The notes under the pieces: model-generated | Told to the model about the DNA's origin: nothing | The model's database searches: none | The model's input: the letters and a program-made list of their open reading frames with translations, nothing else | Program-made: the position numbers and the translations under genes | Sequence record: PV340554 | Source: Escherichia phage PhiR12_5 | Strand: one strand, 5' to 3' | Length of the DNA: 53,384 bases | Shown: one piece after another, positions 40,629 to 42,751 of the stretch | How positions within the stretch are numbered: the stretch's first letter is position 1 | Layout: every line of letters begins with the position of its first letter

Positions 40629-40637
40629 TGGATTATG

Positions 40638-40659
40638 CCCACCGTCAGGTGGTTTTTTT
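40638..40659 (+). terminator. Rho-independent terminator after L
   Basis: ccacc-gtca-ggtgg followed by TTTTTTT. Confidence 0.5.
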
Positions 40660-40672
40660 ATAAGGAGCAATC

Positions 40673-40930
40673 ATGATTTACCCATCAAACAACCCACCAG
40701 TTTGCCTGATTGGATACCAGCCTTGCAGTTTTTATGGAATTAATTATGCCATGCTCAAGAGCCTTGTTAGCATCCAAAATGGTCGAGTCTGCTATCAGGG
40801 ATGCCCACCTAATATGGGTTCCGATGTCGATATTGAACGTCTCAACGAAGCGATCAAGATCGTTATCGAGGCATTTCCCGTACTCTCTCAATCTGGCATG
40901 GTCGGCGGCTGGGGTGGCAAAGACCCATAA
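40673..40930 (+). CDS. Questionable 85-aa Cys-rich ORF, antisense to the 3' third of the ClpP-like gene
   Basis: Strong AAGGAG RBS 7 nt upstream of ATG but fully overlaps the better-supported minus-strand gene. Confidence 0.2.
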   Translation: MIYPSNNPPVCLIGYQPCSFYGINYAMLKSLVSIQNGRVCYQGCPPNMGSDVDIERLNEAIKIVIEAFPVLSQSGMVGGWGGKDP

Positions 40931-41221
40931 TAGAGGATGTAACAGGAATCTTGATAATGGGTTTGCGAAACGTTCTGAGCCAGCCAGGAAAACGATATTA
41001 GCTATGGATTCAACATTGCTTATGTTGTGAGTTCTAACGGTAACAGGGAGTGACTTAAGAAAGTTATACGCAGTAAAGCCAGCGGCAGTTTCCCCTCCCT
41101 GACTTGATATATGGATATTTAATTCAGTTGCGCCTTGAGATAATGCGGTGAGACAGTGGTTCTGAAGTTGCCCAACAGTGGCAGTGTTAACGGGGCATAA
41201 GAAATGAATTGTGTGCAGCAT
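40685..41221 (-). CDS. ClpP-like serine peptidase homologue, translationally coupled downstream of mnt
   Basis: 178 aa; by-eye alignment to ClpP core (NIHISSQGGETAAGFTAYNF ~ YINSPGGVITAGMSIYDT; ...NVESIANIVFLAG ~ GQAASMGAFLLTAG; LHPL ~ IHQP) with candidate Ser/His/Asp retained; ATG overlaps mnt stop (TAATG). Confidence 0.5.
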   Translation of the reverse strand: MLHTIHFLCPVNTATVGQLQNHCLTALSQGATELNIHISSQGGETAAGFTAYNFLKSLPVTVRTHNISNVESIANIVFLAGSERFANPLSRFLLHPLLWVFATPAADHARLREYGKCLDNDLDRFVETFNIDIGTHIRWASLIADSTILDANKALEHGIINSIKTARLVSNQANWWVV

Positions 41222-41469
41222 TATTTTTCATCCTTACCATACATGGTCTTTAGCGTCTCAAGCAGCGCCTCTTTGAATTTGTCAGCTTCTTGGTTAGCGA
41301 ATCCTTCAAGTGAGCGAGGGCCATCAAGATTATCAACATGTTTTTGAAGGATAAGCACAATCTCTGAGTTCATTGATCTGCCGTTTTTATCCGCTTCCTG
41401 CTGAATGCGTTTCTTTAAATAGTCTGGAATCCTAATTCCCAAGGGACTGATATCTCTTGCACCTTTCAT
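41221..41469 (-). CDS. mnt: Mnt-like ribbon-helix-helix repressor
   Basis: 82 aa containing NGRSMNSEIV, resembling P22 Mnt; AGGAGG RBS; divergent from arc/ant. Confidence 0.75.
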   Translation of the reverse strand: MKGARDISPLGIRIPDYLKKRIQQEADKNGRSMNSEIVLILQKHVDNLDGPRSLEGFANQEADKFKEALLETLKTMYGKDEK

Positions 41470-41472
41470 TTT

Positions 41473-41579
41473 TCCTCCTGCACGCTGTAGCATTGCTACA
41501 CAGTGTAGGCAAAAAAACTTTGACTTTAAATAAGCACGGTGTAGTATTTAGTTATCACGGTGTAGCAATTGGGAAAGAA
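41473..41579. promoter_or_regulatory. Divergent mnt / arc-ant promoter-operator region
   Basis: Palindrome TGTAGCATTGCTACA (41486..41500) and direct repeats CACGGTGTAG (41535..41544, 41556..41565). Confidence 0.5.
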
Positions 41580-41720
41580 ATGAAAGTTAGAGATATCGCT
41601 CCATTAGGGATTCGTATCCCGCCAGAGATTAAAGAAAAATTGAAGGAAAAGGCTAAGGAGGAGGGCAGGTCTTTAAATTCAGAAATAGTGCAGCGTCTTA
41701 TTCGCAGCCTAAAAAGTTGA
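41580..41720 (+). CDS. arc: Arc-like ribbon-helix-helix repressor
   Basis: 46 aa MKVRDIAPLGIRIPPEIKEKLKEKAKEEGRSLNSEIVQRLIRSLKS; P22 Arc-like. Confidence 0.65.
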   Translation: MKVRDIAPLGIRIPPEIKEKLKEKAKEEGRSLNSEIVQRLIRSLKS

Positions 41721-41782
41721 AGCCCCAACTGCTGTAACAGTCAGGGCTTCGGTATCAACAAATCGGATTAGGAAATATTGAC

Positions 41783-42697
41783 ATGAAAAGTATAGCAAAG
41801 GCACAAAACGATTTCACCATCTTCAAATTCGGCGACAGTGAAATCCGCGTCATCAACAAGTGCGGTGAGCCGTGGTTTGTAGCAAAAGATGTTTGTGATG
41901 CTTTAAATCTGACTAACTCACGCAAGGCGCTTACTGCACTTGATGACGATGAAAAGGGAGTAACTTTAAGTTACACCCTTGGTGGTGAGCAGAATTTAAG
42001 CATTGTGAGCGAATCAGGTATGTATACATTGGTTCTGCGTTGCCGCGATGCCGTCAATAAAGGTTCAGTCCCGCACAAATTCCGCAAATGGGTGACAGCT
42101 GAAGTTTTGCCATCCATTCGTAAAACGGGGTCTTACGGAAATACACTGAAAGCTAAAAAGGCGTTGCCGGGGAAAATCACTACTGAACAGCAGGAAGCCA
42201 TTAAACAACTCGTCATGAGTCGCGGTCAGTCTCTGCCAAAGGAAAAACAGGCGAAGGCGATGATCACCATGTGGTCGTCACTGAAATCACATTTTGGATG
42301 TTCGTACAAAGAAATCAGCGAGGAGCAGTTTACCGAAGCTCTGTCACTTGCTGCTCGCGTTCCGCTTGAAGGAGAGTTAATCGGCAAACAAGAGAAGAGC
42401 ACCAACGAGCTTTCCGCAAAAGAAACAGACAGCCTTGTATGGCTGTGGGATTATGCCAACCGCTCACAGGCATTGTTCCGTGAGTTGTATCCCGCATTAA
42501 AACTGATTCAGTCTGGCTATTCCGGCATATGCCACGACTACGGCTATGAGTTCTCGTATATCATCGGGAGGGCGAGGGGCGTTTTAATTAATCACACGCG
42601 GGATATAGATATTTATGAGCCTGACGGGCCGACGAACCTTCTGGCATGGGAAAGGCTTAAGAACAAAGAGTTGCCGCCTTCACTGCATCGCTACTGA
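41783..42697 (+). CDS. ant: Bro-N domain antirepressor (Ant-like)
   Basis: N-terminal Bro-N-type motif ([28 protein letters not shown]); C-terminal ~95 aa identical to the ORF6N protein at 17283..17996. Confidence 0.75.
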
Positions 42698-42740
42698 CAA
42701 TTGACAACTTAACAAACCCAGCTTCGGCTGGGTTTTTTAT
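42403..42740. repeat. Direct repeat copy 2 (~338 bp): 3' end of Bro-N ant gene plus terminator
   Basis: Near-identical to 17702..18039. Confidence 0.8.
42714..42740 (+). terminator. Rho-independent terminator after ant
   Basis: cccagc-ttcg-gctggg followed by TTTTTT. Confidence 0.6.
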
Positions 42741-42751
42741 CAGGAGTTCTC

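Follow-up and report, generated by a model that had tools for sequence, protein, structure and literature searches.

The window analysed here is a stretch of 53,384 nucleotides from Escherichia phage PhiR12_5, a lambda-like temperate coliphage (sequence record PV340554), which carries between its tail genes L and K a cassette of the type known as immI in phage P22. With modest confidence, we explain the locus as a whole as an immI cassette whose mnt operon carries, as an accessory gene ('moron'), a gene for an N-terminally truncated ClpP-like protein, the 3' part of which is overlapped on the other strand by an open reading frame (ORF) for 85 amino acids, here called ORF85. The cassette itself is textbook biology at an already annotated location. 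The ClpP-like protein that it carries as cargo adds a new variant, borne by a phage, to a family of truncated ClpPs characterised only recently, and the probable antisense overlapping gene is the least expected element of the locus. The three features on which the argument turns are the following (AF2, AlphaFold2 model):

40685..41221, minus strand: ClpP-like peptidase, N-terminally truncated, PpClpP1 type, 178 aa (Pfam, 9UXT, AF2)
40673..40930, plus strand: ORF85 (PHROG 7758), 85 aa, probable overlapping gene (PHROG match 1.7e-61)
41221..41469, minus strand: Mnt-like ribbon-helix-helix repressor, 82 aa (full-length match to 1MNT; Pfam Arc)

The 178-aa protein matched the Pfam family CLP_protease with 44.9 bits (gathering cut-off 20.2), and a sequence search of the PDB returned a single outstanding match, the protein PpClpP1 of Pseudomonas plecoglossicida (9UXT; E = 2.3e-35, residues 3-175). 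The AF2 model of the protein (pLDDT 90.8) was aligned by Foldseek to 9UXT with template-modelling (TM) scores of 0.93/0.91 and a root-mean-square deviation of 1.7, and to E. coli ClpP with a TM score of 0.80; no sign of a membrane segment was seen in the modelled ClpP-type fold. The ClpP fold that had been proposed in a preliminary description of this DNA is thus upheld by both profile and predicted structure. Its further statement that the protein could not be assigned to any described system no longer holds, since the protein belongs to the PpClpP1 family and is already named in RefSeq by the Prokaryotic Genome Annotation Pipeline (PGAP).

Several traits of a canonical ClpP are missing. The N terminus aligns at about mature residue 27 of E. 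coli ClpP, so that the whole axial gate is absent, and the pocket in which the IGF/IGL loops of ClpX and ClpA dock is gone (Y60/Y62/F82/I90/L114/L189 are replaced by N/H/S/H/N/K). The catalytic triad, read from the alignment with E. coli ClpP, is present only in part: Ser72 and His95, like the oxyanion Gly43, are kept (S97, H122 and G68 in E. coli ClpP) and their counterparts are invariant in the 29 homologues of the family alignment, whereas the position of the triad Asp (D171) is occupied by Ser146 in the phage protein, by Ala or Ser across the family and by Pro in PpClpP1. Scores with the NCBIfam ClpP equivalog models were far below their cut-offs (TIGR00493, 18.5 vs 308.6 bits; best ClpP model, 40.2 vs 228). 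On sequence and predicted structure, the protein is a PpClpP1-type truncated ClpP. The two proteins are of similar size (183 aa in PpClpP1 vs 178 aa) and share the N-terminal truncation, the Ser and His residues and a non-Asp third position; they differ in sequence (38% identity in a structure-based alignment), in the residue at that third position and in setting, since the Pseudomonas gene is chromosomal whereas the phage gene is coupled to a lysogeny repressor.

At E <= 1e-30, a profile search for truncated ClpPs gave 241 representative clusters; among the 150 best listed, the majority have a length of about 180-200 aa. The gene evolves as a protein-coding sequence should: substitutions per codon position amounted to 48/25/100 in one example, and dN/dS was 0.03-0.06 in the 5' half, i.e. 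strong purifying selection. Its annotation is routinely wrong, naming either the ATP-dependent ClpP subunit or a head protease. In favour of the latter, the best PHROG match is phrog_94 'head maturation protease' (1.6e-20) and one phage record is so labelled; the ClpP-related prohead proteases (NF045542, PHROG 94) do share the fold and the Ser-His core with the phage protein. However, the score with the NCBIfam model Clp_rel_HeadMat (NF045542) was 49.7 bits against a cut-off of 120, the gene is located among the tail genes, runs against them and has neither a scaffold or capsid fusion nor such a neighbour, and the phage carries its own protease-scaffold gene, lambda C/Nu3. That the protein is a misplaced or spare ClpP-type head-maturation protease is scarcely credible. 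As to database entries, a Klebsiella homologue (L003-L006, 5001-5717) is called as a protein of 238 aa; the alignment puts its start at the Met of MIHTVHF, 52 codons downstream, and the entry is probably over-extended at its N terminus.

The ClpP-like gene is tightly coupled to mnt. The TAA stop codon of mnt (41223-41221) overlaps the ATG of the ClpP-like gene (41221-41219) on the minus strand in the arrangement TAATG, as the preliminary description had it, and the Shine-Dalgarno (SD) sequence of the ClpP-like gene sits in the last mnt codons. This junction was surveyed in 80 loci from IMG/VR. At least six Mnt alleles share both the TAATG junction and the C-terminal tail ...ETLKTMYGKDEK, which contains the SD sequence; one of their DNA-binding halves is P22 Mnt's own N-terminal half. 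The flanks of the surveyed junctions are either L/K or tailspike/gene 16. Throughout the E. coli clade (>=95% identity), and also in Pectobacterium, where identity is 79% and the junction is unchanged, the ClpP-like gene always follows mnt directly. In two of the loci (L038 and L040), a single ClpP-like gene is preceded by a tandem array of two or three different Mnt-like genes, which suggests a stacking of immI specificities. Because the ClpP-like gene is coupled to mnt and antisense to the lytic genes, its expression in the lysogen is likely, as far as the arrangement of the genes can tell.

A ribbon-helix-helix gene placed upstream of another gene, with a stop/start overlap of 1 nt, is also what might be expected of a toxin-antitoxin-like pair, in which the Mnt-like protein would be the antitoxin. 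We consider this very improbable. Many prophages carry the ClpP-like gene by itself, at least six divergent Mnt alleles have been found with almost the same ClpP-like gene attached to them, and Mnt has its classical partners arc, sar and ant beside it. The ClpP-like gene thus does not co-evolve with Mnt, and a toxin-antitoxin relationship is largely refuted by these genomic contexts.

The distribution of the ClpP-like gene was analysed next to its contexts. It was found in 128 of 5,426 complete E. coli genomes (~2.4%), and among the E. coli records listed it always stands beside a Mnt-like gene. The whole module, with L and K flanks and in the L/K position, is present in 12 complete E. coli genomes; given these two counts, the arrangement is not due to chance. 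A second clade of the ClpP-like gene, adjoining the lysis gene Rz, was found in 15 E. coli genomes. All enterobacterial homologues that were looked up are in prophages, many of them in Klebsiella, Proteus, Pectobacterium and other hosts, and where the neighbours were read the homologues run opposite to the surrounding lytic genes. Lone homologues occupy various places. In Klebsiella and Leclercia they separate the lysis genes from terminase, in Proteus N from erf/ssb, and in Chromobacterium the lysis genes from those for tail fibres; one P22-like prophage without immI has its homologue next to the tailspike gene. By this pattern of contexts, the ClpP-like gene is an autonomous accessory gene which, in the clade of PhiR12_5, is wired into the mnt operon.

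In P22-like prophages, variable cargo was seen between gene 16 and the ClpP-like/ORF85 gene (L114, 1571-2020; L041, 4790-5221; L036, 5594-8246); encoded there are a lipoprotein, a CI-like repressor and a protein with a Panacea domain, besides additional antirepressor-like ORFs. Outside the enterobacteria, the genes of the PpClpP1 family (L020-L025) are found across many Pseudomonas species and relatives, in a conserved neighbourhood of genes for KGG stress proteins and DUF6555. This context is not discussed in the report on PpClpP1 (PMC12900304). The idea that PpClpP1 is itself prophage-encoded was considered and ruled out, the Pseudomonas family being chromosomal with those conserved neighbours.

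The second unusual feature lies on the opposite strand. ORF85 is preceded by the SD sequence AAGGAG (40662-40667), 5 nt before its ATG, and is antisense to and codon-in-phase with codons 98-178 of the ClpP-like gene, so that the first position of a ClpP-like codon is the third position of an ORF85 codon. Judged from sequence comparisons, ORF85 is probably a real protein-coding gene in this clade. Polymorphism was analysed in 33 sequences of the E. coli clade, representing 17 alleles with 19 variable sites. Within codons 1-97 of the ClpP-like gene, 8 of 9 variable sites are at third positions, in contrast to 0 of 10 in the overlap (Fisher's test, P = 1.2e-4), where 7 of the 10 are at ClpP-like first positions. 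When an 89%-identical allele from the Mnt-coupled clade was added, the counts for the three codon positions became 11, 1 and 32 in the 5' half vs 16, 6 and 9 in the overlap (P = 3e-4). A sliding-window analysis of sequences from E. coli, L113 and the Pectobacterium-clade loci L017 and L019 gave a synonymous divergence of ~0.55 up to about codon 100 and of 0.01-0.25 thereafter, while amino-acid divergence rises.

Codon choice points in the same direction. Among the Leu/Ser codons of the ClpP-like gene, TTA, CTA and TCA, which correspond to stop codons on the antisense strand, make up 11 out of 22 in its 5' half and 0 out of 11 in its 3' half (P = 0.005). This avoidance recurs in L113 (P = 0.013), L017 (P = 0.031) and L019 (P = 0.032), with a trend in L063 (P = 0.069). 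Furthermore, an ATG located 1-4 codons past the ClpP-like stop codon and provided with an SD sequence of the GGAG/GAGG type was found in many lineages, ranging from 51% to 100% identity and having unrelated flanks.

Further evidence comes from natural variants that keep one gene of the two. Two metagenomic P22-like contigs (L110 and L111) have lost the genes mnt, arc and ant together with the ClpP-like gene's 5' half, and homology is confined to positions 40675-40931 of the window, i.e. within 2 nt of ORF85 at each end. Both contigs have there an intact ORF of 87 aa, with its own SD sequence after a terminator and with co-directional genes behind it; compared with the window, this ORF displays 4, 0 and 12 substitutions at the three positions of ORF85 codons. 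In E. coli ETEC1749, which has a truncated ClpP-like gene, the 85-aa ORF itself carries a PGAP annotation. As to what follows in L110 and L111, a 47-49-aa ORF (L110, 634-777; L111, 359-508) starts at an ATGA overlap with the ORF85 stop, and it is followed by a predicted membrane protein of ~200 aa before the tailspike gene.

Several observations weigh against a coding role. PGAP normally does not call ORF85, the AF2 model of its product has no confident fold (pLDDT 53), the SD sequence and ATG are lost and the frame is broken in other clades, and several clades with an intact antisense ORF do not show suppression of synonymous variability. The points about fold and constraint are also what would be expected if a non-coding element, for instance an RNA structure or the target of an antisense RNA, accounted for the synonymous constraint in the 3' half, ORF85 being then a shadow ORF; antisense frames in phase are, moreover, often open. 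Non-synonymous divergence (dN) calculated by the Nei-Gojobori method (NG86) was lower in the ClpP-like frame than in that of ORF85 for the deeper pairs, which also favours such an element, albeit NG86 dN/dS values are hard to interpret on the overlap because the two frames are coupled. A non-coding element would leave unexplained, however, the SD sequence and ATG kept just past the ClpP-like stop codon in unrelated flanks, the avoidance of TTA, CTA and TCA confined to the overlapped half, and the block of homology in L110 and L111, which coincides with the ORF and has substitutions distributed according to its codon positions. We therefore regard a purely non-coding constraint as improbable, although well short of negligible.

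That ORF85 is a shadow ORF had also been proposed from codon-position counts over the whole gene and from the broken frames of distant relatives; this proposal was overturned by splitting the gene into halves and by L110 and L111. As for the preliminary description, the existence of an 85-aa ORF with a strong ribosome-binding site stood, but its presentation as an alternative to the ClpP-like gene did not, both genes being probably real. Since ORF85 is on the strand of the late operon, the overlap would join genes from opposite life-cycle programmes.

Long antisense overlapping genes, such as nog1, laoB and ano, have been reported in E. coli O157:H7. As in those cases, a non-trivial ORF in PhiR12_5 runs over its whole length opposite to an annotated gene and appears to be under selection; unlike them, the PhiR12_5 pair resides in a mobile cassette, involves strands of opposite life-cycle phases and has a natural variant in which only the ORF persists. 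A 246-nt antisense overlap with a gene of the opposite life-cycle phase would offer a tractable case for this disputed class of genes: the start codon of ORF85 (40673) is outside the ClpP-like coding sequence, and there are the natural variants described above.

With regard to function, we propose that the ClpP-like gene, as second cistron of the mnt operon, would be expressed when Pmnt is active, i.e. in the lysogen, and would be silenced during lytic growth by Arc and by antisense late transcription. By analogy with PpClpP1, its product would most likely be an open-pored and weakly active tetradecamer, acting either by itself or in a 7+7 complex mixed with host ClpP; the lysogen would in consequence have its Clp proteolysis re-tuned. 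On the late-operon strand, the 3'-terminal 246 nt would also be read as the 85-aa ORF under selection. Exclusion of other phages, a stabilised or tuned induction and host fitness are candidate benefits to the prophage.

This proposal leans on the properties of the characterised relative. PpClpP1 forms a homo-14-mer with a pore of 42.7 A, has a ~13-fold lower peptidase activity, does not bind ClpX, forms with canonical ClpP a more active hetero-14-mer, and affects growth and motility (PMC12900304). In P. aeruginosa, an atypical ClpP subunit tunes ClpXP (PMC13056064). Neither of these two reports, both published in 2026, concerns phages. As proposed here, the phage protein would resemble that P. 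aeruginosa ClpP2, and the ClpP1P2 of Listeria and Mycobacterium, in concept: an atypical second ring, which does not work with ClpX alone, alters ClpXP through hetero-complexes. It differs from them in that those are host paralogues, whereas here a prophage would supply the subunit to E. coli, which has a single ClpP, and sequence similarity to them is weak (E from 1e-4 to 1e-7). E. coli being the textbook single-ClpP organism, a gate-less ClpP subunit made only in the lysogen would be, if true, a new viral rewiring of host proteolysis.

Other findings count against parts of this proposal. The 38% structure-based identity to PpClpP1 and the different host ClpP weaken the case for hetero-oligomers, and activity may be very low in a protein lacking the third triad residue. 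The Pseudomonas relatives are chromosomal and adjoin KGG general-stress genes, so their biology may not transfer to the phage protein. Finally, a consensus scan did not find the Pmnt promoter, its result being no better than with shuffled sequences, and the same was true of promoter scans upstream of the lone homologues.

A more specific function, namely that of a dedicated superinfection-exclusion or anti-phage defence effector acting from the prophage, is doubtful but deserves consideration. Among the substrates of ClpXP are replication and regulatory proteins of phages, RpoS and factors of the SOS response. An exclusion effector could use its open pore to degrade unfolded proteins, ejected or early, of incoming phages, or could accelerate the turnover by ClpXP of the replication proteins of these invaders. 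The positions of the gene fit such a role: the sieA/orf59a region next to mnt (the preliminary description had compared the position with that of P22 sieA, and it does lie in the P22 region with orf59a and sieA), a sieB-like place next to N in Proteus, and the lysis-terminase junction. Where neighbours were read the gene is antisense to lytic genes, and the nearby cargo includes the Panacea-domain protein; exclusion or defence is a reasonable guess because of these map positions, matching sieA, orf59a and sieB, and of this cargo. A late-strand ORF that survives alone would also suit a self-immunity or orphan-immunity gene, comparable to esc within sieB of P22. On the other hand, a search of five proteins against PADLOC-DB v2 gave no match at E <= 1, a literature search found no study or published phenotype of the phage-borne protein, and the closest relative to have been characterised, that of Pseudomonas, is a partner of ClpP of the housekeeping or stress type. 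Position alone would also fit prophage fitness genes such as bor and lom.

SieA of P22 is an inner-membrane protein. It blocks DNA injection, and the esc immunity determinant, located inside P22 sieB, is a precedent for overlapped exclusion/immunity coding (PMC10883804). The P22 genes sieA and sieB/esc and the ClpP-like gene are all prophage-expressed genes, or likely to be so in the latter case, at the same kinds of map position. Unlike in P22, there is no sequence similarity of the ClpP-like protein to SieA or SieB, and ORF85 is on the opposite strand whereas esc is in frame. An exclusion/immunity pair on two strands may nevertheless be envisaged: a gate-less ring made from Pmnt would harm incoming phages directly or by reprogramming host ClpXP/ClpAP, ORF85 would neutralise the ring during the phage's own lytic growth, and the ORF85 of L110 and L111 would be an orphan immunity gene against the ClpP-like factor of rivals. 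We consider this pair unlikely.

A tuning of induction or an effect on host fitness fits equally well as exclusion or defence. As regards induction, ClpX is reported, in a preprint on S. aureus, to be necessary for clearing cleaved CI; as regards fitness, there is the influence of PpClpP1 on growth and motility. The prophage phiv205-1 has been reported to promote biofilm formation and adhesion, with no gene assigned to this effect.

The cassette that holds the two genes was also analysed. The other features of the locus are:

39930..40628, plus strand: tail gene L (Pfam Phage_tail_L, 2.7e-92; labelled L in PV340549)
40639..40659, plus strand: terminator-like hairpin and T-run 3' of L, left cassette edge (terminator scan)
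41481..41567, no strand assigned: divergent control region with putative operators and promoter (repeat and promoter scans)
41580..41720, plus strand: Arc-like repressor, 46 aa (Pfam Arc, 5.2e-13; Arc structures, E = 5.5e-5 to 7.7e-5)
41715..41781, minus strand: sar antisense RNA (Rfam RF00262, 69.4 bits, E = 9.5e-14, full model)
41783..42697, plus strand: antirepressor Ant, 304 aa (Pfam Bro-N, 2.5e-20, and P22_AR_C, 3.3e-25; PHROG 245, 1.3e-103)
42717..42738, plus strand: hairpin CCCAGC-TTCG-GCTGGG and T-run 3' of ant, right cassette edge (sequence reading)
42752..43489, plus strand: tail gene K (Pfam Prok-JAB and NLPC_P60; labelled K in PV340549)

From the end of L (40628) to the start of K (42752) the insert measures 2,123 bp, in keeping with the ~2.1 kb given in the preliminary description, and all the features that it listed were found where it had placed them. 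P22-like phages, e.g. phiv205-1, share positions 40638-42738 of the window (query bases 139-2239), that is, from one hairpin to the other, from which it follows that the cassette moves as a unit bounded by terminators. Its known sites are the gene 16/tailspike junction in P22-like prophages and the L/K junction in lambda-like prophages. On these sequence comparisons, the insert is a mobile P22-type immI cassette. The presence of mnt, arc and ant between L and K without the ClpP-like gene is common and already annotated in Stx phages. The region of interest is 100% identical in Escherichia phages PhiR12_1 and PhiR12_4, the genome-wide identity to PhiR12_1 being 99.75%.

The P22 immI-type module of the preliminary description, with its divergent Mnt-like and Arc-like pair and its Bro-N antirepressor, was recovered in homology and in position, and turned out to be more complete than described. 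The Mnt-like protein matches P22 Mnt (1MNT; E = 1.6e-5, residues 4-76); its start is likely at 41469, with AGGAGG 5 nt upstream and an identical start in PGAP, and the Pectobacterium orthologue matches Pfam Repressor_Mnt. In the ORF map, the Arc-like gene is divergent from mnt and is followed by ant. The sar RNA, absent from the earlier account, spans the arc-ant junction and completes the module; the gathering score of RF00262 is 43. On the minus strand near it are a terminator-like hairpin (41750-41719) and a Psar-like promoter (41817-41789), sites which correspond in position to the sar terminator and Psar of P22. In P22, sar is a translational repressor of ant. The control region has five operator-like half-sites CAC(G/A)GTGTAG, detected by a repeat scan, and a Pant-like promoter, TTGACT-16-TAGTAT, at 41520-41547 on the plus strand, detected by a promoter scan; by analogy with the Oarc/Omnt/Pant/Pmnt layout of P22, positions 41481-41567 would have operator and promoter function.

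The locus therefore resembles P22 immI in gene order and orientation, in its homologous Mnt, Arc and Ant proteins, in sar, in a divergent control region with repeated operator-like sites and in having accessory genes downstream of mnt on the mnt strand. It is unlike P22 immI in that it lies between lambda-type L and K, whereas the P22 cassette lies between gene 16 and the tailspike gene; in that mnt is followed by the TAATG-overlapped ClpP-like gene, whereas in P22 it is followed by orf59a, a terminator, and sieA with its own promoter; and in its operator sequences.

A few further observations concern the rest of the phage. The last ~315 nt of ant and its terminator (42383-42740) are duplicated, with 98.9% identity, at 17682-18039, at the 3' end of a further antirepressor gene (17283-17996), which belongs to the nin region; one C-terminal domain is thus common to the two antirepressors of the phage. 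Between cI and N, in a rexAB-like position, an ORF of 341 aa (11258-12283, minus strand), labelled 'T2SS GspM containing protein' in PV340549, may be another accessory gene expressed in the lysogen. The window and PV340549 differ by 103 mismatches and 12 gaps. The tail-tip gene J, which is intact in PV340549 (3,531 nt), is split in the window into two plus-strand ORFs in different frames (44277-47246 and 47324-47851); this could reflect a host-range variant or a sequencing frameshift.

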